Origin: a virus
Lineage: Duplodnaviria > Caudoviricetes
Reading direction: 5' to 3' (one strand)
DNA: 64,000 nucleotides
Virus record (IMG/VR): IMGVR_UViG_3300032373_000001
This document shows positions 1 to 58,580 of this stretch, one piece after another. The stretch's first letter is position 1; the number at the start of each line of letters is the position of its first letter. The notes beneath the pieces are model-generated. The model was not told the origin of the DNA, did not search any database, and saw nothing but the letters and a program-made list of their open reading frames with translations. The translations under genes were made by a program, and so were the position numbers.

Positions 1-76
1 AGCCCCTCGATGGTGCTCCGGTCAAAGGCGACCTCGGTTGAGGGACCTGGAGAATGCTGGCAAGGCGGGTTGGCAT
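1..76 (-). CDS. Partial CDS running off the left edge (MPTRLASILQ...)
   Basis: Not in the ORF track. ATG at 76 preceded by purine-rich AAAGGGGGA; frame is open to position 1. N-terminus resembles the RLAGIL/KLAKIL leader of neighbouring genes. Confidence 0.45.
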   Translation of the reverse strand, partial: MPTRLASILQVPQPRSPLTGAPSRG

Positions 77-94: not shown

Positions 95-487
95 TCAACC
101 CACCAACTGGGCCAAATTGGAGAGCATGTCCACATCTTCGACGATGAAGCTCAAGTCGATCGACCCAGGCCGGACCTCCTTAGCTCCCACCCTCTCCCCT
201 TCGAGGGAAGTGATGCGGAACTCGGGCTCCACTCCGAGCCGCTCCCCGTACTCCCTCAAGACAGCGTTCTGCAGCCCCTGGAGGATGACGTTCTTGTACC
301 GCTTCAGGACCCACTCACTGAGGCCCTCGTGATGCAGGTCCGGAACCGGATCACGGACCTGCAAGAATCCGCGGACCCAGAACAAGGTCCCCCTACGGAA
401 AGGCGCGATCTCAGTGAGGGAGAAACGTGCTCCGGCAGTCCTCACCCCTTCTTGCCCCAAGATACCAGCCAGCCTCACATTGCCCAT
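95..487 (-). CDS. Hypothetical protein with leader family 1 (candidate head cargo)
   Basis: GGAGG RBS supports the start at 487 (MGNVRLAGILGQEGVRTAG) rather than 502. Confidence 0.75.
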   Translation of the reverse strand: MGNVRLAGILGQEGVRTAGARFSLTEIAPFRRGTLFWVRGFLQVRDPVPDLHHEGLSEWVLKRYKNVILQGLQNAVLREYGERLGVEPEFRITSLEGERVGAKEVRPGSIDLSFIVEDVDMLSNLAQLVG

Positions 488-520
488 AGGAACCTCCAAC
501 ACCCTTGAGGGAGAGGCTGC

Positions 521-760
521 CTATTTACGGCTCAGGGCCAGGTCCCGCTTCAGGTCCTTCAACGCCTGGGAGTAGCTCAACGCCTTCACCTGCCCCTCAT
601 CCCGGAAGAACGAGTCGCGAAGTTCCCGGCTCACGGAGCGAGGCATGTCCTCGAACAAGAATACCGCATAGTCCCCCCGCCACTCTGTTCGGAGGTACTT
701 GCAGCCGCACACCACCAAGAAGGCAGCGAAGTACAGGTTGCGGGTCTCGTACTCAGGCAT
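521..760 (-). CDS. Small DUF5659-like phage protein
   Basis: 79 aa with TRNLYFAAFL..G...Y.VFLF pattern typical of DUF5659-like proteins; GGAG RBS. Confidence 0.6.
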   Translation of the reverse strand: MPEYETRNLYFAAFLVVCGCKYLRTEWRGDYAVFLFEDMPRSVSRELRDSFFRDEGQVKALSYSQALKDLKRDLALSRK

Positions 761-785
761 GCTCCAGAGTACCCCCGCCTGCGTC

Positions 786-1175
786 TCAGGATCCGGAGTA
801 GTAGGTGTTGACTACACCCCGGTAGATCTCATAGGGCTTGTCGCCTGGGTCGTAAGCCTCCGGGTCATTCCGGAACGGGTCCAGGTACTGGAACACGGCC
901 ACAACTTCCGCCATGCCTCCCGGCCAGTAGTTCTTCTTGAAATTCGACACCAGTGCGTGAGCTTTCCGCAGCGCCTCTTGCTTCGAGGAGGCTTCGCCCG
1001 TGAGCCGAACGGCTCCGCTCGGGAACGGGACACTGATCCGCATCCGACGAAGGTCGTCGGAGGTGTAGATCTTGGGGTGTTGGCCCCAACTTGGAGGAGT
1101 CTCCTCCAAGGACCGCATCGGGACAGAGGCTTCCCGCAGTCCCTCTTGCTTCAGGATCTTCGCCAATTTGTTCAT
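786..1175 (-). CDS. Hypothetical protein with leader family 1 (candidate head cargo)
   Basis: Starts MNKLAKILKQEGLREAS; GGAG RBS. Confidence 0.75.
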   Translation of the reverse strand: MNKLAKILKQEGLREASVPMRSLEETPPSWGQHPKIYTSDDLRRMRISVPFPSGAVRLTGEASSKQEALRKAHALVSNFKKNYWPGGMAEVVAVFQYLDPFRNDPEAYDPGDKPYEIYRGVVNTYYSGS

Positions 1176-3201: not shown

Positions 3202-5865
3202 CTACCCCTGCTGGTGCATCGCCACCACGCGCAGAGCACTCAGGCGAGAAGCTGGGGGAGCCGTCCTCGTCTCGTGGACCCGGACTGGGGCGGAGGTCAA
3301 TTTGCGGTACTGGTCCACAAAGGCTTCCCCCCCACGTTTCCGATAAGCGCGGCCCTTTAGGACGTCCACTCCCAAGAGGGCACCCTTGATCTTGACTGGA
3401 CCAGGAACGAACTCTTCCGCATTAGTGTACTGGGGATGCTCAGAGCGCGTTGCCATCCCAAACTCAAAAGGCATCATCTTGTGGTGCTCGCGCAATTTGT
3501 TGGCGTCCAGCACCAAACGGACGGGACCATACCTGCGCAAGTCAAACCGGCGAGTCAGGCTCACTCCAGGAACGAGCCCCCGCTCTTTGAGGGCTTCTTG
3601 GAAGTTCTCGGTCGGAGAGATCACCCCGCTCTTGAGGATTCCCGCAGCCCCCTCCAGGGAAGTGAAGTGGTAGAGAGGGGCGCGGTTGGAAGCCTTCTTG
3701 CCCGGCTTATACGGAACCACGTTGTACGGACCCTTCACACGTCGGGTGAATTCCCTCAGGAACTCGTCCTCCCAGGCCAACCCGGCGCTCCAGGGGAAGC
3801 TGATCTCCGGGATCTCTGGCCGAGAGTCGATTACCCCCACCACCACGATCCGGTTCTTGCCGCTGAACCCGACAGGCTCCAGGGAACGGACATTGTGAAT
3901 GGCTCCATCACCGACGTCGGCCGTAGGCTTGAAGAACCGGCTGAATTGCTCGGTCGCGTCACGCAATTTTTGGAAGGTGCCCGTGAACATCGCAGGAGGG
4001 CCCAGCAAATCCCCCAGGGCCTCCTGCGCCTCTGGGGTCGGGGTCTCTCTCAGCATACCCACCGTGCGGGTGTAGTTCCGCCGCAAGCCCCCCTCAATCA
4101 AGTGGGCCAAGTAGGTCAGCAGCAGGTCTCGAGTGACCTGCAGAGCCTTCTGCTTCTGGCGGTCATAGCTCCGTCGAGCATTTGGCCAGCGCCCCAGGAA
4201 CTTGCGGAGGAACTTGTCCAGGAGAGGATCAAAGCTCATCCCCGACATATAGGCGGCAAGCTCCTTCAGCGTGTAGGGGTTGATAGGGTTGCGGGTGTCT
4301 TCTTGAAAGAAGCGGTCAGGGATAAAGGCTCCCCAGCGCTTTGGGATGCGACGGAAATTGCTCCCGGCCACCTCTTCCGCCACCTCAAGGATCGAGTCTT
4401 CATCTTGGATGATGTCCGGCGAGCGGGTCTCCAGGGTGGCCCCAACGATCACGGGCAAGCCTCCGCTGCGAGCAGCAGTCCGTGCAGCATCGTAGGCAAA
4501 GCGTTCCGAGAAGTAGGCCCCGCCGTAGGTCTGGAGGGAGCGCGAGCCGAGCCACTCTTCCTCCCCGTAGACCAAATCCACCCCCGACGGGAGCAGCCCT
4601 TGCTTCAGGATCCCCCGGATGTTCTTGGAGGAGGTTCCATGCCAGAAGAGCTTCCGAGCAGCCTCACGGTCGGAGGAGCCCTGCTTCTCCCTGCGGGACT
4701 GAGCCTGGAGAAGGCGACCCAGCACTGCAACCACATGCTTGCATGCCCCATGTCGGTGGTTCGGGTCCTTCTCGCGAGGGGAGGCTGCGGTCCCTCTGGG
4801 CTTCCCGTAGAGATAGCCGCCGCGCTTGGCCCAGTGCTCGGGACCCTGCCAACGCCAGAACTCGCAGGAGCAAGAGACCTTGATGGAATCTTCTCCCCGA
4901 AGGACCCGAATGCGGTGAGTACCCCCGTCAGAGGCTGCCGCCCTGTACTCCAAGACGCCCAGGCGAACTCCGATGCGAGTCAGCTTCACTTTGCGGGCAC
5001 GCTGGAAGAGGTCACGCGAGCACTTCTGGAGGATGTCTCGGAGGGTGGCCCGTTTGTTATCCGAAGCGGCCTTCGGATAAGTCAACTGCTGCCGTAGAGT
5101 GTTCTTCATGCTGTCGGGGATGACCTTGGCAGAACTGGCAGGCATGTTATTTTTATGGGTCGTGCTGTTCCCCGGCCCCCCAAGGCCGGTCGGCTCGTAG
5201 TGAGTGCCTGGGGTCGTGAAGTGGGAGGAGCCGGAAGGCTGGTAGTGCACTCCCTCTCCTGGCTGCTGCCGGCCAGGGTTCGGGTTCTCCTGCTTGTAGA
5301 GGATGATGTCCCCGGCTCGACGGTCTTCCCACAGCGCCAGCACCACTTCTGCAGCGCACCGCTCGATGGGAGTCTTCTTAGGGGTGAGGCCCTTCTTGCG
5401 CCAGTAGGCCGTGATCACCTTGGCCACGGGCCCAGCGATCTTGAACACCAAGAAGAGGTGCCGCCGGGGGTCAGCCCAGCGAATCAGCGTCCCTTTCTGA
5501 ATGGCCCGCTGGTGCTTCTTGCGCAGCTCGAAGTACAAGGGGCTCTCGTAGCGGGCCCAGAACTCTCGGAACGAGTCGCGAAGGTTTCCCAGAGTGATGC
5601 CGCGCAAGTCCATCCGAAATTGAGCGTGAGCGCTCAACCCGATGAGCTTCATCTCCGGGCCGATGCCCGCGAAGGTCCGATCCGAACGGTAGACGAGGTT
5701 GACTTCGTTCGGGGTGAGGTCCCCGGTAGCGTCCAAGCGGGCCAGCAGCGGTGCGGCATTCTTGGCGCTGAGATGCTTGTTGATGCGTTCTGCTACAGTA
5801 CAAGTCCCTCCAGGAACCCCCAGCGGAGGACGGAGGTCTTTGGCGTAAGACTCTCGGAGCATCAT
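3202..5865 (-). CDS. Polyvalent protein: DUF4258-like + SWIM zinc finger + two ADP-ribosyltransferase-like domains
   Basis: Motifs SAHAQFRMDLRGI; CSC...CKH; FWHGTS...GAYFS...DED; LYHFTS...VSLTR...AEE. Linkers KAAS, KQGS, KKAS. Confidence 0.7.
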   Translation of the reverse strand: MMLRESYAKDLRPPLGVPGGTCTVAERINKHLSAKNAAPLLARLDATGDLTPNEVNLVYRSDRTFAGIGPEMKLIGLSAHAQFRMDLRGITLGNLRDSFREFWARYESPLYFELRKKHQRAIQKGTLIRWADPRRHLFLVFKIAGPVAKVITAYWRKKGLTPKKTPIERCAAEVVLALWEDRRAGDIILYKQENPNPGRQQPGEGVHYQPSGSSHFTTPGTHYEPTGLGGPGNSTTHKNNMPASSAKVIPDSMKNTLRQQLTYPKAASDNKRATLRDILQKCSRDLFQRARKVKLTRIGVRLGVLEYRAAASDGGTHRIRVLRGEDSIKVSCSCEFWRWQGPEHWAKRGGYLYGKPRGTAASPREKDPNHRHGACKHVVAVLGRLLQAQSRREKQGSSDREAARKLFWHGTSSKNIRGILKQGLLPSGVDLVYGEEEWLGSRSLQTYGGAYFSERFAYDAARTAARSGGLPVIVGATLETRSPDIIQDEDSILEVAEEVAGSNFRRIPKRWGAFIPDRFFQEDTRNPINPYTLKELAAYMSGMSFDPLLDKFLRKFLGRWPNARRSYDRQKQKALQVTRDLLLTYLAHLIEGGLRRNYTRTVGMLRETPTPEAQEALGDLLGPPAMFTGTFQKLRDATEQFSRFFKPTADVGDGAIHNVRSLEPVGFSGKNRIVVVGVIDSRPEIPEISFPWSAGLAWEDEFLREFTRRVKGPYNVVPYKPGKKASNRAPLYHFTSLEGAAGILKSGVISPTENFQEALKERGLVPGVSLTRRFDLRRYGPVRLVLDANKLREHHKMMPFEFGMATRSEHPQYTNAEEFVPGPVKIKGALLGVDVLKGRAYRKRGGEAFVDQYRKLTSAPVRVHETRTAPPASRLSALRVVAMHQQG

Positions 5866-11820: not shown

Positions 11821-12300
11821 TCAGAGGCGGTTGTCGACAGAGTACCCGTTGAGGGCGGCTTCGTACCCATCCGCCTGTTCCGCCAGCAGGCTAACCCCAA
11901 CTTGGCGTTCTGTCGGGGGATTCGTCTCCCCCGACAGCTTGCGGAGCGCACCTACGAACTCCGGATAGTCGAATCTCCGCAAGAACTCTTCGGGGCTCAA
12001 CGGCTTCGCAGGCTCGTATGCCCCGGAGTATCCCTGGTGCTCCGAAGCGCACAAGAGGAGGGTGCCCAGCTGCCGCAGCGAAAGGCGGCTCGCAGCAAAG
12101 TCCAGCTCCGCTCCCATAGCCCCAAAAGAGTCCATGGAAAGGCTGAGGCGAGGACCCATCCCCGCATCGTACACCCGGAAGCTCACTCCCCCGTTACCGA
12201 CGTGGAAGTACCCCTCCTGAACCGTGCGACCCTGACCCGTGTTGCGTGCGACCTTGGCTACGCCCTCTTGCTCCAGGCTGTAGGCGAGCTTCTTTCTCAC
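11821..12300 (-). CDS. Hypothetical protein with leader family 1 (candidate head cargo)
   Basis: Starts MRKKLAYSLEQEGVAKVA; GTG start overlaps the upstream TGA. Confidence 0.7.
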   Translation of the reverse strand: MRKKLAYSLEQEGVAKVARNTGQGRTVQEGYFHVGNGGVSFRVYDAGMGPRLSLSMDSFGAMGAELDFAASRLSLRQLGTLLLCASEHQGYSGAYEPAKPLSPEEFLRRFDYPEFVGALRKLSGETNPPTERQVGVSLLAEQADGYEAALNGYSVDNRL

Positions 12301-12863
12301 TCGACGCCCCCGTCCTCGCTCATGTCACAGCTGATTGCCGGCAAGGTGAACAGGCCAGCCCCCGGCTCCTCGATCACAGAGATGATGTGAGGCTGGTATG
12401 CCTTCAGGCCCTCGATGAGCAGGGCTCCGACCTCGGCGACCTTCGGGTCCTCGGCGTCCTCTGCCAGCTTGCCCACCACGCTCAAGAGGGGGCTGATGCT
12501 CAGCTCCACGGCCAGGGGGATGTCCTTCCCCTCCAGTTCCTTCTCGCGGAAGGGCATGCAGGCGCTGACGTCAACGCCCACCGCCGGAATCTCGCAGACC
12601 CCGTCGCGGGCAGAGACCAAGGCAGCGCGAGAAATGTCCACCGAGGAAGAAGCGACCCCGCTGGAGACGCAGGCCACCCAGTCCTCCTGGGCGATCGCGA
12701 CTTCCTGGGCACCGACCGTTGCGGCCTTGAGGGTGGTCAGCTCCATGAGGATGGAGTTCCAGTCCTCGACGGTGCCGTCCCAGTTCTTGAGGGCCAGGAT
12801 GACTCCGACGACCGCCATCAGGGCGAGGGCCAGGGAAGGAAGATACTCGCGCAACTTTTCCAT
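12297..12863 (-). CDS. Membrane-anchored protein
   Basis: N-terminal hydrophobic helix LALALMAVVGVILAL, then an acidic domain with three Cys; AGGAG RBS. Confidence 0.7.
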   Translation of the reverse strand: MEKLREYLPSLALALMAVVGVILALKNWDGTVEDWNSILMELTTLKAATVGAQEVAIAQEDWVACVSSGVASSSVDISRAALVSARDGVCEIPAVGVDVSACMPFREKELEGKDIPLAVELSISPLLSVVGKLAEDAEDPKVAEVGALLIEGLKAYQPHIISVIEEPGAGLFTLPAISCDMSEDGGVE

Positions 12864-30410: not shown

Positions 30411-30893
30411 TCAGTAGCCGTGCTCCGACAGCAAGCGGCGAAGCTCTTCCAGGACCTCGGCAAAGACCCTGCGCCACTGAGGGTCCGAAAAGCTCACGTC
30501 ACCGAACGAGCGGCCTGAGTAAGACTCCCAAAAAAGGGCGTTCTGGCGGGTGAGCCTCCCATACTTCCCGAAGGCGATATAGCCCGAGGCTTGATCCTCC
30601 AGCCCCACGCGACCCGGTTGGTCGAGGTAGAGGAACTTCCCGAAAGGGAGACTCAAGACGACACCGACGTAGCCGGAATTGAACGCCTTCACAGCCCCCT
30701 GGCCGGAGATCCCTGCGCCCTCGAGAACCTTCCGGAAGGCACTTGCAGCATCGAGGGTGCGGGGAGGGACCTGGAAAACTGCGGACCTGCTCGACAGACC
30801 GGCGAGGATTGCCCGGCGAGACTCATCGCCCTCGGGCAAGGAGCGGGCGAGCTTGATCAACGCGACCCGGTCTGCCCCTGAAAACTTTTGCAT
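30411..30893 (-). CDS. Hypothetical protein with leader family 2 (candidate head cargo)
   Basis: Starts MQKFSGADRVALIKLARSLPEGDESRRAILAGLSSRSA; AGGAGGAG RBS. Confidence 0.75.
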   Translation of the reverse strand: MQKFSGADRVALIKLARSLPEGDESRRAILAGLSSRSAVFQVPPRTLDAASAFRKVLEGAGISGQGAVKAFNSGYVGVVLSLPFGKFLYLDQPGRVGLEDQASGYIAFGKYGRLTRQNALFWESYSGRSFGDVSFSDPQWRRVFAEVLEELRRLLSEHGY

Positions 30894-33386: not shown

Positions 33387-34583
33387 TCACTGGAAGTGGC
33401 TGGTCACGTCCGGAGCCGACTGCCAGAGCTGGCTGAGGTCCATGTCACCCTCGGCCGAAGCCTCCTTGGTGACAGTGCCCAGCGTGGACGGGCCGGTCGA
33501 AGCCTTCTTGGGCTGCGGCTTGAGGTCGAGCTCGGAGGCTTCCTTGGCCTGCTCGTCGGCGAGACGGGAGACCTCATCGCCCTGGAGCTGGGCCAGGAGC
33601 GAGCGCTCCTCCTCATCGAGTGCCATGATGTTCATGGGGTCCATGTCCATCTCGACCTCCTCTTCCTCGTAGAAGGAAGAGGGCTCGTTCTGGTCCATGC
33701 CGACATCTTCCACGGCCTCGGGCTCCATCATGCCCTCTTCGCGCATCATCTCCATGTACATGGCTTCGTAGTCGTCGCCTCCCATGGGCTCACCGCAGGC
33801 TGCCTGAGAGGCCATGCCCTCTTCGTCGCAGGCCTTCTTCTTGGCCTCCTCGTCGACCTCGACCTCGACCTCCTCCTCATCGCTGTCGTCATCGCTGTCG
33901 TCATCGCTGTCGTCATCGCTGTCGTCGTCATCATCCTCATCGCCCTCATCGTCATCCTCGGCGAGGCGCATGAGGATGCGCTCCAGGCGGGCGACGCGGG
34001 ACTCGGTGTCGTCTTCGGCAGCGAAGCGGGTCAGGACGCGCTCCAGCGTCGCGATGCGGCCTTCCAGGGAAGCCTGCTTCTCTGACTCCTCCACCCCCTC
34101 AGCCTTGTGCTCGACCTCCTCCTGGATGGTCTCAGCGGCCTCAGCCTCAGCCTTCTCTTCCTTCTCGGTGCCCGCGGCCTTGTCCTCGGCCTGCTTGTTG
34201 AGGTTCTCGAGGCTGGTGAAGATGTGGGACTCGGGCAGGTCCATGAACAGGCTGGCTTGCCTCTCGACCTTCATCACGTCGGCGTCGGTGGAGGGCTCGC
34301 CCAACATCGCCGTGGCGAGGCGCAGGCAGAGGTTGGCCTTCTCGATGGCAGCCATCTTGGAAGCCGGGTGGTCGTGGCCCTCATTCGGGACAGCGGGTGC
34401 AGGTCCGTTCGGGTACGGGCCGGGGTGCGGGTCCTCAGCCCAGGAGCTGGGGTCGCCGTTCTCGTACTTGTCAGCCTCGGGGTCGGGCTGAGAGTGAGCG
34501 GGCGATGCCGGTCCTTCGTTGGGCACGGCGGGAGCCGCCGAGCTCTTCTTGTTGTTCCAGGTCAGTCGTTGACGAGCCATCAC
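33387..34583 (-). CDS. Capsid scaffolding protein
   Basis: Very acidic, coiled-coil and low complexity; lies between protease and capsid genes. Confidence 0.8.
   Translation of the reverse strand: MMARQRLTWNNKKSSAAPAVPNEGPASPAHSQPDPEADKYENGDPSSWAEDPHPGPYPNGPAPAVPNEGHDHPASKMAAIEKANLCLRLATAMLGEPSTDADVMKVERQASLFMDLPESHIFTSLENLNKQAEDKAAGTEKEEKAEAEAAETIQEEVEHKAEGVEESEKQASLEGRIATLERVLTRFAAEDDTESRVARLERILMRLAEDDDEGDEDDDDDSDDDSDDDSDDDSDEEEVEVEVDEEAKKKACDEEGMASQAACGEPMGGDDYEAMYMEMMREEGMMEPEAVEDVGMDQNEPSSFYEEEEVEMDMDPMNIMALDEEERSLLAQLQGDEVSRLADEQAKEASELDLKPQPKKASTGPSTLGTVTKEASAEGDMDLSQLWQSAPDVTSHFQ
33877..33924. repeat. Coding tandem repeat (TCATCGCTGTCG)x4 encoding (DDSD)4
   Basis: Four exact 12-bp copies read from the sequence. 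Confidence 0.9.
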
Positions 34584-34592
34584 GAACTCCTC

Positions 34593-36047
34593 TTAGAGGG
34601 TTTGCGGGTTGTTGTTGCGCTCCCACTTGGAGAGCAAGGAGCCGACCCGGACAACAACCCGGAGTTCGGCAGAGGAAAGCTCCCTCCCCGCCGCGCGCAG
34701 GATGGCGCGCTTGTAGTCTTGCGGGGAAGTGTAGCGAACCGGGGAACCGACCTTCAGCGCCACCCGGTAGGGTGCGGGGTCGGTCGGGATGCCGTAGGCT
34801 TGGTTCAGGGTGGCGACCCCTTCCACCAAAGCCACTTGGGAAGAGGCGGTGCGGGTCAGCAGGTCCATGCTGACATGGTACGCCTTGCGAGCAAGTCGGG
34901 CACCAGCCTCTCGCTGAATCGAATCGTTGGGCTGGAATGTGACCTCCGAGTCTGCCTCGGACGCCTCATCTTCCCTCAAGTCCTCATCGATGCGGTCGTG
35001 GACCTTGTCCTTGACCTTCTCGTAGACCTTCTCGGTGAGGTCTTCGAAAGGCTTCTTCGGCTCTTCGCCCTTCGGCGCATCGCCCCCTTCCTCGTCGTCG
35101 TCCTCGAAGTCGAACGCCTTGCAGAACTTGGGGAGGGTGAGGTTGGCAGCCTTGCTCATGGCGGTGTCGGACCAGCCGGTGGGGGCCTGGGCCAGAACAT
35201 CCCGCAGAGCCTTCTTGACCTGAGCGGGAGGGAGGTCACCTGCATCGATCAGGTTGCGCATGACCGCCCCAGGGAAAGCCGGGACCTTGACCCAGCTGGC
35301 CTCGATGAAGTTCACGCCGCCCGGAGCGTCAGGGTTGTCCTTGTAGTCGATGTGGCCGCAGAGCTCTGCAACGACGCGCTTCTGTTGGCGCTCGTCCAAG
35401 AAGCTATTGAGCTTGCTGATCTTGATGTGGTCGCAGAGGTCCGTCTCATCGACCGCGACATGGCCGCACTGAGAGCAGATGGTGAAGTCTGTGGTACAGC
35501 CCATGCTGAGGGTGCCCATGACCCCAGCCCTGATGTCGCGGACCAGGGTCTCGTGCTTCCGGTCGGTGGCGACCAGAATGTCGATGTAGACCGAATCCCC
35601 GATGTCGCGGGCGACCGCATCCAGGATGCGACCCTTACTCTGGGCCTCGATCTGGACGTGCTCTTGGAAGTTGTGGCCCGCGATGAAGGTGGGGTAGCTC
35701 GCCGTCAGGACCGGACGGCTCCAGCAGTCGCCGTTGTTGTTGACGAACTGAGCCGACTTGTCGGTGATGTAGAAGTCGCCCCAACGACGGTCGATGGTCC
35801 GGGACCCGACCCGGACCCGACCCAGCTTGGCGTTGGGGGCCTGCTCAGTATCCACCGAAGCCACGATGGTGCAGTGAGTGAACAGGTACTTGTCGGGGTC
35901 CAGGCTGCCGCCCAAAATCTCCCTCGCCTGATCTGTCAAGTTGCGGTTGCTCGCACCCGAGGTTGCAGCGGTGCGCGTTCGGCTCCACTGGCGACGACTC
36001 ACGTAGGGGTGAACCACCATGGCATTGGCTTTCTTCGAGTGAGCCAT
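34593..36047 (-). CDS. Prohead maturation protease (herpesvirus/HK97-type serine protease fold) with Zn-ribbon insert
   Basis: NNNGD.W, EH..IE..SKGRILD, LSMGC..DFTICSQC...CDH, FIEASWV..PAFPGA; position upstream of scaffold and MCP. Confidence 0.82.
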   Translation of the reverse strand: MAHSKKANAMVVHPYVSRRQWSRTRTAATSGASNRNLTDQAREILGGSLDPDKYLFTHCTIVASVDTEQAPNAKLGRVRVGSRTIDRRWGDFYITDKSAQFVNNNGDCWSRPVLTASYPTFIAGHNFQEHVQIEAQSKGRILDAVARDIGDSVYIDILVATDRKHETLVRDIRAGVMGTLSMGCTTDFTICSQCGHVAVDETDLCDHIKISKLNSFLDERQQKRVVAELCGHIDYKDNPDAPGGVNFIEASWVKVPAFPGAVMRNLIDAGDLPPAQVKKALRDVLAQAPTGWSDTAMSKAANLTLPKFCKAFDFEDDDEEGGDAPKGEEPKKPFEDLTEKVYEKVKDKVHDRIDEDLREDEASEADSEVTFQPNDSIQREAGARLARKAYHVSMDLLTRTASSQVALVEGVATLNQAYGIPTDPAPYRVALKVGSPVRYTSPQDYKRAILRAAGRELSSAELRVVVRVGSLLSKWERNNNPQTL

Positions 36048-52006: not shown

Positions 52007-52588
52007 TCAGTCGTAGATCGGGCCGCGATCGCGACGACGCTTCGGGGCACGACCGCGACGCTTGGCTCCATGCTTGTCGAGGTACTCGATGATGTCGTCG
52101 GCGGTGAGCCCCCGCTTCTCCCACTCGCGCCTGCTGAGACCCGCACCCATGTGGGGGTGCGTCAGGTCAATCTTGGCAGGCTGGCCCTTGCTCATGCGGA
52201 CTTGGTAAACCAGCCGCCCTTCCTCAGACTTGATGTCATCGGGCAACAGGCGGTCCCAGGTCAGCGCCCAACCCAAGAGCTTGGCCACCTTCTTCTCCGT
52301 GGCCGAGAGCTTGTTGAACACCGCATCCTGCTGCGCCTTGTAGATGTTGTAGGCTTCCCGCTCAACCTGGCGGAACAGGGTGCCTGTATCATACTGGCGA
52401 ATCCAGTATCCGTACCAGTCCGCCGCATCCGCGAAAGTGCGGGCGAACCCCATGGAACCCCTGCTCACGAGGTACTCGGCGAGACCCTTCGCATCCCCCG
52501 CCTGAAGGAACGCTTCGACCTTCGGGTCTCGCTCCTCAGACTGCTTGGAGAGGCCCTCTTCCCTCAAAATATCAGCCAGCTTCTTCAT
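52007..52588 (-). CDS. Hypothetical protein with leader family 1 (candidate head cargo)
   Basis: Starts MKKLADILREEGLSKQS at 52588 with GAGGGG RBS. Confidence 0.75.
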   Translation of the reverse strand: MKKLADILREEGLSKQSEERDPKVEAFLQAGDAKGLAEYLVSRGSMGFARTFADAADWYGYWIRQYDTGTLFRQVEREAYNIYKAQQDAVFNKLSATEKKVAKLLGWALTWDRLLPDDIKSEEGRLVYQVRMSKGQPAKIDLTHPHMGAGLSRREWEKRGLTADDIIEYLDKHGAKRRGRAPKRRRDRGPIYD

Positions 52589-54151: not shown

Positions 54152-54490
54152 TCAGCCCTTCCCGTGCTCGTCCGAGGCCCCACGGACCGGCCACCGACCG
54201 CTTGCGCGGGACTCCGTCTCAGCGCTGAGGATCTTGTCCTCATTGATCTCCTCCAGAGCCTCCAGCTCCTCGACGAACCCCTTGATCAGGGACTGAGCTT
54301 CGGGGCTCGCGGGGTCCGTGTGGGGGAAGGCACCTTCGAGGGACTTGGTCACTGCCCGAACGACCCCGCGAGAGTAGAGCGCGACCTTGTCCAAGCTGGT
54401 CAGGATCGCCCTGCGGGTCTCGTCACCCTTCGGGAGAGAGCGAGCCAGCCGCACCAGAGCCTGTCGCTCCTGCTTCGAAATCCTTTTCAT
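54152..54490 (-). CDS. Hypothetical protein with leader family 2 (candidate head cargo)
   Basis: Starts MKRISKQERQALVRLARSLPKGDETRRAILTSLDKVA; AGGAGG RBS. Confidence 0.75.
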   Translation of the reverse strand: MKRISKQERQALVRLARSLPKGDETRRAILTSLDKVALYSRGVVRAVTKSLEGAFPHTDPASPEAQSLIKGFVEELEALEEINEDKILSAETESRASGRWPVRGASDEHGKG

Positions 54491-56333
54491 CGGAGGTCCT
54501 CCTATCCAGAGTTGCCGATAAGGAAAGGATTGCTCTGGCGAGGGCCTCTATCGAGACAGTGTCGCCCGAAGCGGTCTTGAGGCTGGCGAAACGCCCTTGG
54601 CTCTCCTTGGGTTTGGCGTAGGTCAACCCCAAACCCTTCGCGAGCTGGGACACGACGTCGGAGTTCTCGACCAGCTGCCGTCCCGTGTCGCTATAGATGC
54701 CTCGCATCATCTCGTTGTATGTCGGATCGTTGACGGTCAGCCGGTCCCGCTCGACCTTCTCCCGCACAGCCACCGGATCGAGGTTCAGGAGCTCCAGGAT
54801 GGTGTCGATGTCCAGCGAGCCCTTCTGGTACAGGTTGTAGAGCGCGTCGAAGGTGTCCCGGTTGTCCCGCAGGGCAAGGCGGGTGAAGCTCAGGGAGGGG
54901 ACCAAGACAATCTTATCCCCGTCCTCGTCTTCCTCCACAAAGCCCATACGAGCACACATAGGACGCAAGAGGATTTCTTCCACCAGTTTCTGGAGCTGCT
55001 CTCGCAAGAGCATGTAGCGGGTGTTGATGGCCTCCAGGTTCACCCGGTCCCCGGAATAAGAGCCCTCTCCTGTCAGGAGGCTCTCCGTGATGCCCAGGCC
55101 CGCATACAACTGACGGTTGGTCAGCTCATACTCGCCGTCCAGGTTCAAGAGGCGCTGGTCTGCCCCCATTTCTTCCCAGCGGACCTCGAAGTTGGAGACG
55201 ATGGAATAATCCGGGTCCATCAGGGCCATATCGACCTGCTCCCGGAGGTCCTCCACGTCACCCAGGCTAAGATCTTCCCCGTACACAATGCGGATAGGGG
55301 TCATGTGCCGCGAGGCGATGGAGGTCTGAGCCTGACGGAGCTTGTCCCGATAGACCAGGGCTCGCATGCAGCACTGGAGGATCGAAGTCCCACGGGCCTC
55401 GTAGTCCGACTTCTTGTTGTAGAGGCAGTACACGAAGCTGCCAGCATACGGGTCCGTACCCAAGACCACGTTCCCACCCTTCCGGACCGCGTCGATCAGG
55501 TGGGGAGGCATGTCATCCACGACCTCCTTTGCCACCGGGTCTCCCGCTGCCGCCTGCTCGATGACCTTCTTGGTCTCGGAGTCCGGGAGCATCTCCACGA
55601 TCTTCTTGTCGGTGAAGTTAAACGTGCGGACCCTAATGTTCTCGGGGGGGAGGCAGACCAACTTGGTCCAGCCCTTGTAGTTCTTCTTCAGCCACTTGGC
55701 AGCGCGCTTGTCGGCGTCCTCGTACTTGATCCTCTTCTCTACAGCCTCACCATCTTCCGTCAAAACCCGCTGCGTGTAGTGAGTGATATCTTCCGGCATC
55801 TCCGGGTTCTTGTCCTCGCACCAGAGATACACCTCGCCGATGAGGTTGCGCTCACGGGTGATCGCCAAGAGCCGGTCCGTCAGGTCGATGCGCCGGACCC
55901 ATTTCTCACAGAAGCGCATCGCCGCCTCCGCCATCTTCCGATTCTTGGCGCGAGGGATTGCCAACCGTACCTTGCTGATCGGCAGGATGGAATGTAGGGA
56001 AATCGCCTGGCTGACGTAGGGTTCGTTCTTATCGAAGAAGCGGTAGTAGGCCCACTGCTCATGGAGGCTCTGGGGCAGCTCCAAGAAGTCCGTGGAGAGC
56101 TCCGGGGAGTAGAAGTTGCCTCCGGCTCCCATCACCGACCCGCCGTTGCCGAAGCCGCCTCCACCGTAGGATGCGGTCCGAGACTTCATCTGGCTGGAAA
56201 CCACCCGCCGAGGCGGGCCAGCCTTGGCCTTCTTCTTGCCGTCTCCGTTGGAGACCTTGTTGACCACCTGAGCATCATCTTCTTGCTGCTTGCCCAGCCG
56301 CTGGCCGAACCCCTTACGACGACCCATCTGCAA
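54423..56333 (-). CDS. Portal protein
   Basis: 636 aa two genes downstream of terL; FYSPE...YYRFFD..EPYV.QAI.LH, RGTSIL, helical C-terminal half. Confidence 0.8.
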   Translation of the reverse strand: MQMGRRKGFGQRLGKQQEDDAQVVNKVSNGDGKKKAKAGPPRRVVSSQMKSRTASYGGGGFGNGGSVMGAGGNFYSPELSTDFLELPQSLHEQWAYYRFFDKNEPYVSQAISLHSILPISKVRLAIPRAKNRKMAEAAMRFCEKWVRRIDLTDRLLAITRERNLIGEVYLWCEDKNPEMPEDITHYTQRVLTEDGEAVEKRIKYEDADKRAAKWLKKNYKGWTKLVCLPPENIRVRTFNFTDKKIVEMLPDSETKKVIEQAAAGDPVAKEVVDDMPPHLIDAVRKGGNVVLGTDPYAGSFVYCLYNKKSDYEARGTSILQCCMRALVYRDKLRQAQTSIASRHMTPIRIVYGEDLSLGDVEDLREQVDMALMDPDYSIVSNFEVRWEEMGADQRLLNLDGEYELTNRQLYAGLGITESLLTGEGSYSGDRVNLEAINTRYMLLREQLQKLVEEILLRPMCARMGFVEEDEDGDKIVLVPSLSFTRLALRDNRDTFDALYNLYQKGSLDIDTILELLNLDPVAVREKVERDRLTVNDPTYNEMMRGIYSDTGRQLVENSDVVSQLAKGLGLTYAKPKESQGRFASLKTASGDTVSIEALARAILSLSATLDRRTSDEKDFEAGATGSGAAGSLSPEG

Positions 56334-56667
56334 TCTCCTCCGCCGCCTGCTGCTCAGCCGCCCTCAAGAGGGCTTCTTCTCGCTCCTGTCGGACCCGTTC
56401 TCGGAGCTGTTGCGCCAGCTCATCCTCGGTCATCTCGTCGGTTTCTCGAGGGCCATTGCTGTAGGGGCTCACCATGCTGGGAACGTCCTGGATCATCTCC
56501 AGGAGCCCCCGGAGGTGCCGCAGGGTCCTTCGCTTCCGCTGAGGAGGTACGCCTACGGCTTCTGAGGCAGAGCGGAGTGCAGCACGGACCTCGGACTCCG
56601 CTCGACGAAGGCGGATCAGGACCTCACGGTCTTCCGCGCTACTCTGGCGGATCCGGAAACGAGTCAT
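56314..56667 (-). CDS. Hypothetical protein between terL and portal
   Basis: 117 aa, ATGA overlap with terL stop. Confidence 0.7.
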   Translation of the reverse strand: MTRFRIRQSSAEDREVLIRLRRAESEVRAALRSASEAVGVPPQRKRRTLRHLRGLLEMIQDVPSMVSPYSNGPRETDEMTEDELAQQLRERVRQEREEALLRAAEQQAAEEIADGSS

Positions 56668-58580
56668 CGACGGCGGCCTCGGGGAATGGTGCGACTACTG
56701 TGGGACCCTACCCCAGTGCGGCGCGCGGACCTTCGGGAATTCCCGAAGGGGGTCTTGCCTGCTGAAGGCAGGCCCCGGCGACCGGACGCCCCCAGCGTTG
56801 CATGCTGGTAGGTCTTGTTCTGGGTAGCGCAGAACACCATGCGAACCAAAGCGTCACTGTAGTCGTCGTGTTTCCCTTCCATCTGGGGGGCCTCGACGTT
56901 GACGATGTACTTGGACTTGTACTCCGCCTGAAGCTCCAACAGCTCTTGGATGTAGTCACACCACTCCTCGTCGTCCGCCAACGGCCAGTTGTAGAGCCGC
57001 ATCTTATGGTCCATCATGAGGTGCATGAAATTGGTGTAGACCTGGGAGTTGAAGCTGGGGTTGAACAGCTTCGACTTGATGTTCTTCAGGCCACGGCGGT
57101 TCAGCGCCTGCTCGAAAGGGATGCCAGCCCACTGGTCGAACATCCCCTCCACGATGTAGAAGCGCTTGCTCAGGTCGTAGACCCAGTCCGCGACGTGATC
57201 GAACTCCAACCGCTCGTAGTCTGCGTAGTCGCCCTCGCCAGCGCGGATGCGCTCGATGTAGTCCAAGACTACGTTGCCATCCGGGTCGTTGTGGCCAACG
57301 GCGACTGCAGAATAGTCGCCGACGAGGGCGATGTCGACGCCCATGAAGTGGGGGGCGCGAGGCTGTGCCCGGAGCTTGGGGCGCATGTCGGGGACCACGC
57401 AATCGTGCAGGTCCTTGGGGGTCTGGATCCAGCCACGAGTCTGATCGCTGAAGATCGCACCGAACTCAGTGTCGAAGACGTTGGGGTCCTTTAGGTAAGA
57501 ACCGACGAACGTCTCAGCAGGAACTGTGGGGTTGACCTCCCACGTAGGGGCCTGGATGCAGAGGAGGTTGTCTGCGGCTGCGTTGTCGCCAAAACCCAAC
57601 CGGAACTGCTTATAGAAAAGGCCCTGCTTGCCCAGCGGCGAGGAGATCATGATGATCCGACCCTCGTTCTCTCCGACAGGCTTGGTCTTGTCGTTGGGGT
57701 CCTTCTTGCTGAAGGTACGGGTAGAAGGCTCGACCGCCTGATAGACCTCGTCGGCCGACGCCTGCCCCTTGTCTCCGAAGTGAGCGACCTCATCCAGGGC
57801 AACCAGCAGGTTGGCTCCACCACGAAGGCCCTTAGCCACACAAGACCGGAAGGTCACGTTGATGCTGAACCGGGCCTTGGGGTTGTCCGCGTAGGACCCG
57901 TACTGCTCGATGTCATAGGGGGTCTGGAAGGTGGCATAGCTCTGCGTGGCGTTCGCAGCATAGGGTCGGAAGAAGTCACACTTGGTGAAGTGCCCCGAGG
58001 CCTCCCTGTAGAGCAAGGACGCCTGGTCCTTGTCGGTAGCGACCGAGATCAGCTGGATGACGTTCGATTGAGAAGAGCCGTAGTATGCCTGGGGGTTGCC
58101 CTTCAGGAGGAGCTTGTACGCCTCATAGGCGACGATGCAAGACGTGATCAGCGTCTTCCCAGAACGGCGACCAACACTGAGTACCATCTCGCGGCGCTGC
58201 CTGCCAGGGACGACCGCATCGATGTTGCAGCGGCCCTCACTGTGGAGGTACTTGATGTAGCTGGCCTCGGTGTGGTACTGAGGGTTCTGCCGCCGGAAGT
58301 CTGTGATGACCACCCGATAGACGTAGAAACCATCCGTGTCAACGAGGTCTTCGTCGTAGGCTGGGTGGTTAGTCGGGATCGGCACATCCAGCGGGAACCC
58401 GAGGGGGTTGTCGTCCAGCCCCATACCATAGTGGGCCTTGAGGATGATACGCTGAACCGGGAACAGCTTGAGGCCCAGCCCCCACTCACTCTCCACGAAC
58501 GTAATGATGTCAACCGCCGCATCGTCCGTAGAGTTAGACGAGCGGCGACCGACGCCAGCTACCAGGTTCCCCAGGCTCAT
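56664..58580 (-). CDS. terL: Terminase large subunit
   Basis: Walker A GRRSGKT, Walker B LVALDEVAH, coupling motif ISSP, nuclease FMGVDIA and HDDYSDA. Confidence 0.93.
   Translation of the reverse strand: MSLGNLVAGVGRRSSNSTDDAAVDIITFVESEWGLGLKLFPVQRIILKAHYGMGLDDNPLGFPLDVPIPTNHPAYDEDLVDTDGFYVYRVVITDFRRQNPQYHTEASYIKYLHSEGRCNIDAVVPGRQRREMVLSVGRRSGKTLITSCIVAYEAYKLLLKGNPQAYYGSSQSNVIQLISVATDKDQASLLYREASGHFTKCDFFRPYAANATQSYATFQTPYDIEQYGSYADNPKARFSINVTFRSCVAKGLRGGANLLVALDEVAHFGDKGQASADEVYQAVEPSTRTFSKKDPNDKTKPVGENEGRIIMISSPLGKQGLFYKQFRLGFGDNAAADNLLCIQAPTWEVNPTVPAETFVGSYLKDPNVFDTEFGAIFSDQTRGWIQTPKDLHDCVVPDMRPKLRAQPRAPHFMGVDIALVGDYSAVAVGHNDPDGNVVLDYIERIRAGEGDYADYERLEFDHVADWVYDLSKRFYIVEGMFDQWAGIPFEQALNRRGLKNIKSKLFNPSFNSQVYTNFMHLMMDHKMRLYNWPLADDEEWCDYIQELLELQAEYKSKYIVNVEAPQMEGKHDDYSDALVRMVFCATQNKTYQHATLGASGRRGLPSAGKTPFGNSRRSARRTGVGSHSSRTIPRGRRR

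Follow-up and report, generated by a model that had tools for sequence, protein, structure and literature searches.

In bacteriophage T4, the internal proteins IPIII and IPII begin with the capsid targeting sequence (CTS) MKTYQEFIAE. [quoted passage not shown] In the giant phage SPN3US, the propeptide of gp47 and the C-terminus of gp245 are terminal segments proposed to direct proteins into the prohead, where the maturation protease removes them (PMC7411985). In encapsulins, short terminal cargo-loading peptides address unrelated cargo into an HK97-fold shell. These peptides are usually C-terminal and uncleaved, their motif is different from the one described below, and the cargo genes lie beside the shell gene.

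We analyzed a stretch of 64,000 nucleotides from a virus of the Caudoviricetes (IMG/VR record IMGVR_UViG_3300032373_000001), hereafter called the window, which is 62% G+C and has nearly all of its coding on the minus strand. A sequence-only reading had noticed that four of its proteins with unrelated bodies start alike, and had likened the common leader, hereafter called family 1, to the T4 CTS. Both points are borne out: the CTS is the closest analogue in the literature (PMC9026906; PMC7411985), and the four genes lie exactly where they had been placed.

95..487, minus strand: leader gene 1, 130 aa; leader MGNVRLAGILGQEGVRTAG at 431-487; ORFan body; profile score 22.1 bits
786..1175, minus strand: leader gene 2, 129 aa; leader MNKLAKILKQEGLREAS at 1125-1175; ORFan body; profile score 26.6 bits, the best match
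11821..12300, minus strand: leader gene 3, 159 aa, with a GTG start instead of ATG; leader (M)RKKLAYSLEQEGVAKVA at 12247-12300; profile score 22.8 bits
52007..52588, minus strand: leader gene 4, 193 aa; leader MKKLADILREEGLSKQS at 52538-52588; profile score 24.1 bits

The family-1 motif, K-L-A-x-I-L-x-[QE]-E-G-[LV], has exactly four matches when the six-frame translation of the window is searched with a regular expression, as compared to 0.006 expected from the residue composition and none in 200 codon-shuffled windows. Each match begins at residues 3-6 of a minus-strand ORF with coding-like GC3. Moreover, the leader genes were called independently on public contigs, and leader gene 1 has a 130-aa gene call on the ENA contig too. 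These counts, the independent gene calls and the profile scores, which are clear of noise, already refute the idea that the likeness is a chance recurrence or an annotation artefact.

How many copies does the genome contain? We sampled 189 kb, consisting of the window and 125 kb more, which corresponds to about 46% of the 410,989-bp ENA metagenome contig on which the window lies; IMG/VR had no exact match to the DNA of the window. Thirteen family-1 copies are present in this sample, and the four originally noticed, although correct for the window, therefore undercount the genome by the nine found outside it. Three of these nine are located in the 10 kb beyond the window start: one is on a 231-aa protein, another is cut, and the third is divergent and belongs to a 345-aa protein. 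The other six are in G001, a 115-kb IMG/VR fragment, and include a shorter variant on a 321-aa protein; there is also a degenerate copy. We considered G001 as a second, related phage and rejected this, as one of its proteins maps to the 410,989-bp contig; it is the same genome, and its copies are thus not independent. G001 runs across the ends of this contig, which points to an assembly that is circularly permuted. We built a profile using only the leaders and scanned it against six frames of four phage genomes (about 1.48 Mb); it retrieved 12 copies at 16-27 bits, while the best non-leader score in this phage, LR745208.1, Tunturi_5 and G001 was 8.5 bits. The thirteenth copy, a 19-codon leader-only ORF (MNRLARILGEEGLSAKKAA; G001 (L024), about 73975-74033, minus strand), is below the size used in the profile scan, yet matches the motif. 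Its in-frame TAA lies exactly at the leader-body junction, directly after K-K-A-A, and the frame stays open for about 130 codons further, which a pseudogene, translational read-through or an error in the sequence could each explain. In contrast, the possible truncated fifth copy that the sequence-only reading had seen at 1..76 (MPTRLASILQ) does not belong to the family. It lacks E-G-[LV] and scores 1.8 bits, which is noise, and the corresponding 62-codon ORF (2..76, minus strand) has no gene call on the full contig.

All 13 copies start within five residues of the start codon. The codons of the conserved residues differ synonymously among the copies (CTG, CTC and TTG for leucine; GCT, GCC and GCG for alanine; all four codons for glycine), and the DNA upstream of the leader genes is not conserved. 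The target of selection is therefore the peptide, rather than DNA or RNA. The family-1 tag is genuine, strictly N-terminal, selected as a peptide, and portable. Some N-terminal recognition motifs of ClpX resemble N-terminal strings of methionine, basic and hydrophobic residues. This resemblance, together with the constant placement of the tag within five residues of the start codon, would favor the idea that the tag sets the amount or timing of the protein, either by marking its N-terminus for degradation by a host AAA+ protease or by tuning translation initiation. We nevertheless regard this idea as highly improbable, because the synonymous variation excludes an RNA-level element, the twelve conserved positions, including the invariant E-G, exceed the needs of known degrons, and it leaves the [KR]-x-A-[SAG] linker and the tagged genes of the head module unexplained.

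Next, we consider the bodies to which the tag is attached. The tag has 17 residues, and the similarity between the tagged proteins ends abruptly at residue 17. The bodies range from 82 to 345 aa; when compared by blastp in a tiny database, none resembled another (all E > 0.05), and none matched a family in Pfam or PHROG. Among three bodies compared with the ESM Atlas, two had no match and the 345-aa protein gave a sub-threshold DUF4240 lead, while a homologue search with the 52007-52588 protein found only the protein itself. Small ORFan bodies could conceivably have diverged past recognition, and all copies occur within one lineage. In addition, two leader genes with unrelated bodies (L002 14708-14746 and G001 57449-57487) share an identical 27-nt stretch that spans the ribosome-binding site and the first four codons, which suggests that duplication or recombination moves the leader and its translation start as a unit. 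These observations would suit a set of diverged paralogues of one small ancestor, in which the N-terminal helix was kept as a structural or oligomerisation element. This explanation is quite improbable, given that the likeness stops at residue 17, that one body has leaderless homologues in other phages, and that an analogous tag in phage G (see below) occurs on Pfam-distinct folds (PARP-like, ferritin-like and deoxyribosyltransferase-like).

The body with leaderless homologues is that of the tagged 321-aa protein (G001 86940-87902, = L025 6940-7902, plus strand). Its four homologues, at 39-45% identity, begin with M-R-x-A-T exactly where the leader ends, while a 76% orthologue on the 13.5-kb contig of a relative retains the leader. 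The family-1 leader is thus a portable add-on. In an AF2 model of this protein (mean pLDDT 72), the leader is predicted to form a separate helix at residues 3-9, followed by a disordered segment at residues 11-19, and the fold of the body starts from about residue 21. The top PDB fold matches of the body are all ADP-ribosyltransferase (ART) folds (Tpt1/KptA, DarT and PARP10/14), with E values of 0.08 or worse, and the H-G-T-S, Y-L-T-T and E residues are conserved, consistent with such a fold. On the basis of these matches, we describe the body as ART-fold-like, an assignment that lies below significance.

The tag has a narrow distribution. By portal similarity, the nearest records are the uncultured 485-kb LR745208.1 (58%), Tunturiibacter phage Tunturi_5 (35%) and Bacillus phage G (26%). 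Family 1 was not found in any of the three, and hence there is no conserved receptor to point to. When IMG/VR, JGI metagenomes and 185,579 prokaryote genomes were scanned with degenerate DNA patterns, the N-terminal matches were confined to this phage and a single short contig of a relative from another sample, and the internal matches fall within unrelated proteins. A profile search of 1.84 billion representative proteins found, beyond the queries, one orthologue in a relative as the sole N-terminal match; the other four matches are repeat-containing proteins. This confinement to the lineage of the phage indicates a young, lineage-specific innovation. Moreover, a tagged 137-aa gene and its 251-aa neighbour (L055 10001-11180) are missing at the syntenic place in the relative (L079 6993-7100, 76% identity), which places tagged genes in variable, indel-prone accessory regions.

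The window encodes a head module, with the following members.

56664-58580: large terminase
54423..56333, minus strand: portal protein, with R-T-A-S near the N-terminus and R-F-A-S and K-T-A-S near the C-terminus
34593..36047, minus strand: candidate prohead maturation protease (phrog_18299, E 2.8e-8)
33387..34583, minus strand: scaffold-like acidic protein with five [KR]-x-A-S, including K-E-A-S directly before the last 22 residues
31642..32514, minus strand: major capsid protein, HK97 fold (phrog_2522, E 8.6e-51)

The candidate protease is 40% identical to its homologue in LR745208.1 and 47% identical to that in Tunturi_5. The genes between those of the portal and the protease include two that encode giant proteins, of 1797 and 1476 aa, which have enzyme-like domains and are putative cargo. 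The motif [KR]-x-A-S occurs 29 times in the head-module proteins, about four-fold more than the 7.1 expected, as compared to 15 occurrences against 8.2 expected elsewhere, and the scaffold-like protein alone has five against 0.3 expected. In this phage, LR745208.1 and Tunturi_5, the scaffold retains a K-x-A-S directly ahead of its last 16-22 residues, and the protease and portal of phage G have K-x-A-S close to their termini. These motif statistics make [KR]-x-A-S a candidate cleavage motif of the prohead protease. The scaffold site recalls the maturation site of the herpesvirus assemblin, a likeness that concerns the candidate cut site and not the tag. Herpesvirus assemblin cleaves at Ala/Ser, and thereby releases the capsid-binding C-terminal tail of the scaffold.

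How often is this motif present in the leaders themselves? The sequence-only reading had the leader usually followed by [KR]-x-A. In our own tabulation of 16 family-1 leaders, seven have the full [KR]-x-A-[SAG] and four more have a looser [KR]-x-[AS], but the rest have neither, and the candidate cut site is accordingly absent or imperfect in nine. The reading of the leader as a capsid-targeting helix plus cut site thus holds in part. It agrees with a portable N-terminal peptide on unrelated bodies, composed of a helix and a flexible linker, but the cut site is missing in about half of the copies.

Other leader types exist in this phage and in its relatives. Family 2 is a second portable leader of the same phage, with about 37 aa arranged as helix-P-x-G-D-E-helix, and is found on three unrelated proteins.

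30411..30893, minus strand: family-2 gene, near the major capsid protein gene
54152..54490, minus strand: family-2 gene, directly downstream of the portal gene
L002 10624-11004, plus strand: family-2 gene

A different N-terminal leader occurs 11 times in LR745208.1, on unrelated proteins of 93 to about 350 aa. This leader has 31 residues (M-T-T-L-R-S-K-L-I-R-L-A-H-x-N-P-x-L-R-P-x-L-L-P-L-L-K-E-A-[AG]), and most of the copies terminate in K-E-A-[AG]. By its coordinates, one of the genes lies between the scaffold and decoration genes. In Bacillus phage G (NC_023719.1), about 26 proteins begin with M-K-R-L-x-[KR]-K-[AS], and their bodies form 18 unrelated clusters, including seven ART-like paralogues, a ferritin-like protein and a deoxyribosyltransferase-like protein. 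Two of the phage G genes flank the protease gene gp19. In both phages, therefore, some of the tagged genes are in or beside the head module.

LR745208.1, e.g. 15266, 20732, 351543, 351838, 390948, 398575 and 433279: copies of the 31-residue leader
NC_023719.1, e.g. 16055, 17777, 28218, 179204 and 245994: copies of the phage G tag

In the literature searched, we found no description of the phage G tags, and a search with the phage G string gave nothing relevant. Three likenesses among these elements were tried and set aside. A relation of family 1 to the second half of family 2, and another to the scaffold segment M-M-R-E-E-G-M, were proposed post hoc and are not recovered by the leaders-only profile (-1.9 and 0.7 bits, respectively). 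The protease of LR745208.1 contains L-I-R-L-A-S in its C-terminus, and the L-I-R-L-A of the family-2 and LR745208.1 leaders resembles it; this match is seen by regular expression only and missed by profiles, and is a weak lead.

Where do the family-1 genes lie relative to the head module? Leader gene 4 (52007-52588) is located within the head operon, between the portal gene and the putative giant cargo genes; the portal gene is followed by a gene for a 516-aa protein, and 8 nt separate the latter from the start of leader gene 4. Most family-1 genes, however, are far from the head module, on both strands. A possible transcriptional connection is provided by a promoter-like GGTAG-N5-YTAT box, which lies 39-44 nt upstream of four window genes in or beside virion clusters (minus-strand positions 2756, 23710, 50078 and 50755) and of one leader gene (G001 57437, plus strand); it occurs on the coding strand only. 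Looser YTAT boxes are upstream of several other leader genes or their operons. One of them precedes the gene at 12297-12863, whose 3' end overlaps the start of leader gene 3 by four bases. The link between leader and virion genes suggested by this promoter-like box is strict for just one leader gene.

Taken together, we propose that the family-1 tag addresses accessory proteins to the capsid interior, in the manner of the T4 CTS. The case is circumstantial, and we assign this reading a probability of about 50%. It is based on the tagged gene in the head operon, the linker motif enriched in head proteins, the tags of the relatives, and the ART-like body; from these, we infer the capsid destination, the cleavage of the leader and the injection of the tagged proteins. 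A prediction of the complex of the major capsid protein, the scaffold and the leader scored 0.00, with a 40-residue alignment and no controls, and speaks neither for binding nor against it. The capsid reading does not account for the invariant E-G of family 1, and we count this against it. As for secretion, the family-1 leaders lack the hydrophobic h-region of at least 10 residues after a basic n-region that characterizes Sec/Tat signal peptides; they are amphipathic, with a mean hydrophobicity of about -0.2 and a hydrophobic moment of 0.42-0.61, and are followed by charged residues.

The helix may instead be a docking tag for some other shared partner, such as a chaperone or hub encoded by the phage, a part of the tail or baseplate, or a target in the host. 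The scatter of most tagged genes outside the head module, on both strands, would suit such a partner, as would the invariant E-G-[LV], which suggests specific protein recognition without indicating by what, and the complex prediction, which pointed to no receptor. Against it stand the tagged gene inside the portal-to-protease operon, the match of the linker motif to the motif enriched in the head proteins, and the positions of the analogous LR745208.1 and phage G tags in or beside their head modules. We consider a partner of this kind rather unlikely.

Tag architecture: The tag consists of three parts, and heads at least 13 otherwise unrelated accessory proteins, all encoded by one uncultured huge phage of about 411 kb in the phage G lineage. 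Residues 3-11 make up a short helix, [KR]-L-[AS]-x-I-L-x-[QE]-E, which is amphipathic. The invariant glycine caps this helix and is followed by leucine or valine. The third part is a basic, flexible linker, which in about half of the copies contains [KR]-x-A-[SAG].

Proposed docking and release: During head assembly, the helix would dock the nascent protein on an internal component of the prohead, which may be the scaffold core or the shell interior, and the docked protein would become enclosed as the head forms. Where the site is present, the prohead protease would cut between [KR]-x-A and [SAG], and free the body as capsid cargo. The freed cargo could then enter the host with the DNA. The tag would thus act in the manner of the T4 CTS of IPI-III and Alt.

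Judged by its sequence, the family-1 tag appears T4-CTS-like in every respect that sequence can show. Each is a short, amphipathic, portable N-terminal peptide common to proteins with unrelated mature parts. As in T4, a prohead protease and a scaffold (candidates here) are encoded in the same genome, which is what a CTS-class system requires. Alt is an ADP-ribosyltransferase and the 321-aa tagged body is ART-fold-like, with a weak E value, and the T4 internal-protein loci and the family-1 genes alike are variable accessory genes. The two systems differ in the cut, which is (L/I)-x-E/ in T4 and would be [KR]-x-A/[SAG] here, in about half of the copies; in copy number, which is four or so in T4 and at least 13 here; and in the coexistence of several unrelated tag types in the phage-G-like clade. 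A direct comparison of the family-1 consensus with the T4 CTS peptide quoted above revealed no sequence similarity, and the tag is thus an analogue, rather than a homologue. The SPN3US segments differ further, in that they have about 111 residues and are each specific to one protein instead of labelling many, and their cleavage motif is A-x-E, unlike the candidate motif here. In contrast to the encapsulin peptides, family 1 is N-terminal, and most of the tagged genes are far from the major capsid protein gene; a parallel is that a ferritin-like protein bears the analogous tag in phage G.

A broader reading, which we put forward tentatively and hold to be possible though less probable than not, is that phage-G-like huge phages share an evolvable system of address labels that loads accessory proteins into the capsid for co-injection. 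The labels would be lineage-specific N-terminal helices, namely families 1 and 2, the 31-residue leader of LR745208.1 and the M-K-R-L-x-K-K-[AS] of phage G, each followed by a clade-wide [KR]-x-A/S processing site. The cargo would comprise dozens of fast-evolving accessory proteins (ART-, ferritin- and deoxyribosyltransferase-like proteins and ORFans), and a label on a new gene would suffice to turn its product into injected cargo. If the tag does load proteins into the capsid, it would reveal the means by which megaphages take on large, changeable repertoires of injected proteins, by a system analogous to the T4 CTS that evolved independently and has far more copies. The injected arsenal of uncultured huge phages could then be read from sequence, by way of the labelled proteins, and a short peptide would be at hand for loading foreign proteins into very large capsids.

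Two further observations concern the window. More than 2000 metagenomic proteins match the major capsid protein; the best 120 of these are 86-92% identical to it, and some are encoded on contigs as long as 372 kb. The near invariance of this protein in metagenomes points to a very large clade of huge phages. In addition, a YTAT box precedes the minus-strand gene at 3202-5865, which encodes an 887-aa protein with a match to the PARP catalytic domain (E 3.4e-7), possibly a large effector that is co-expressed with the virion genes.
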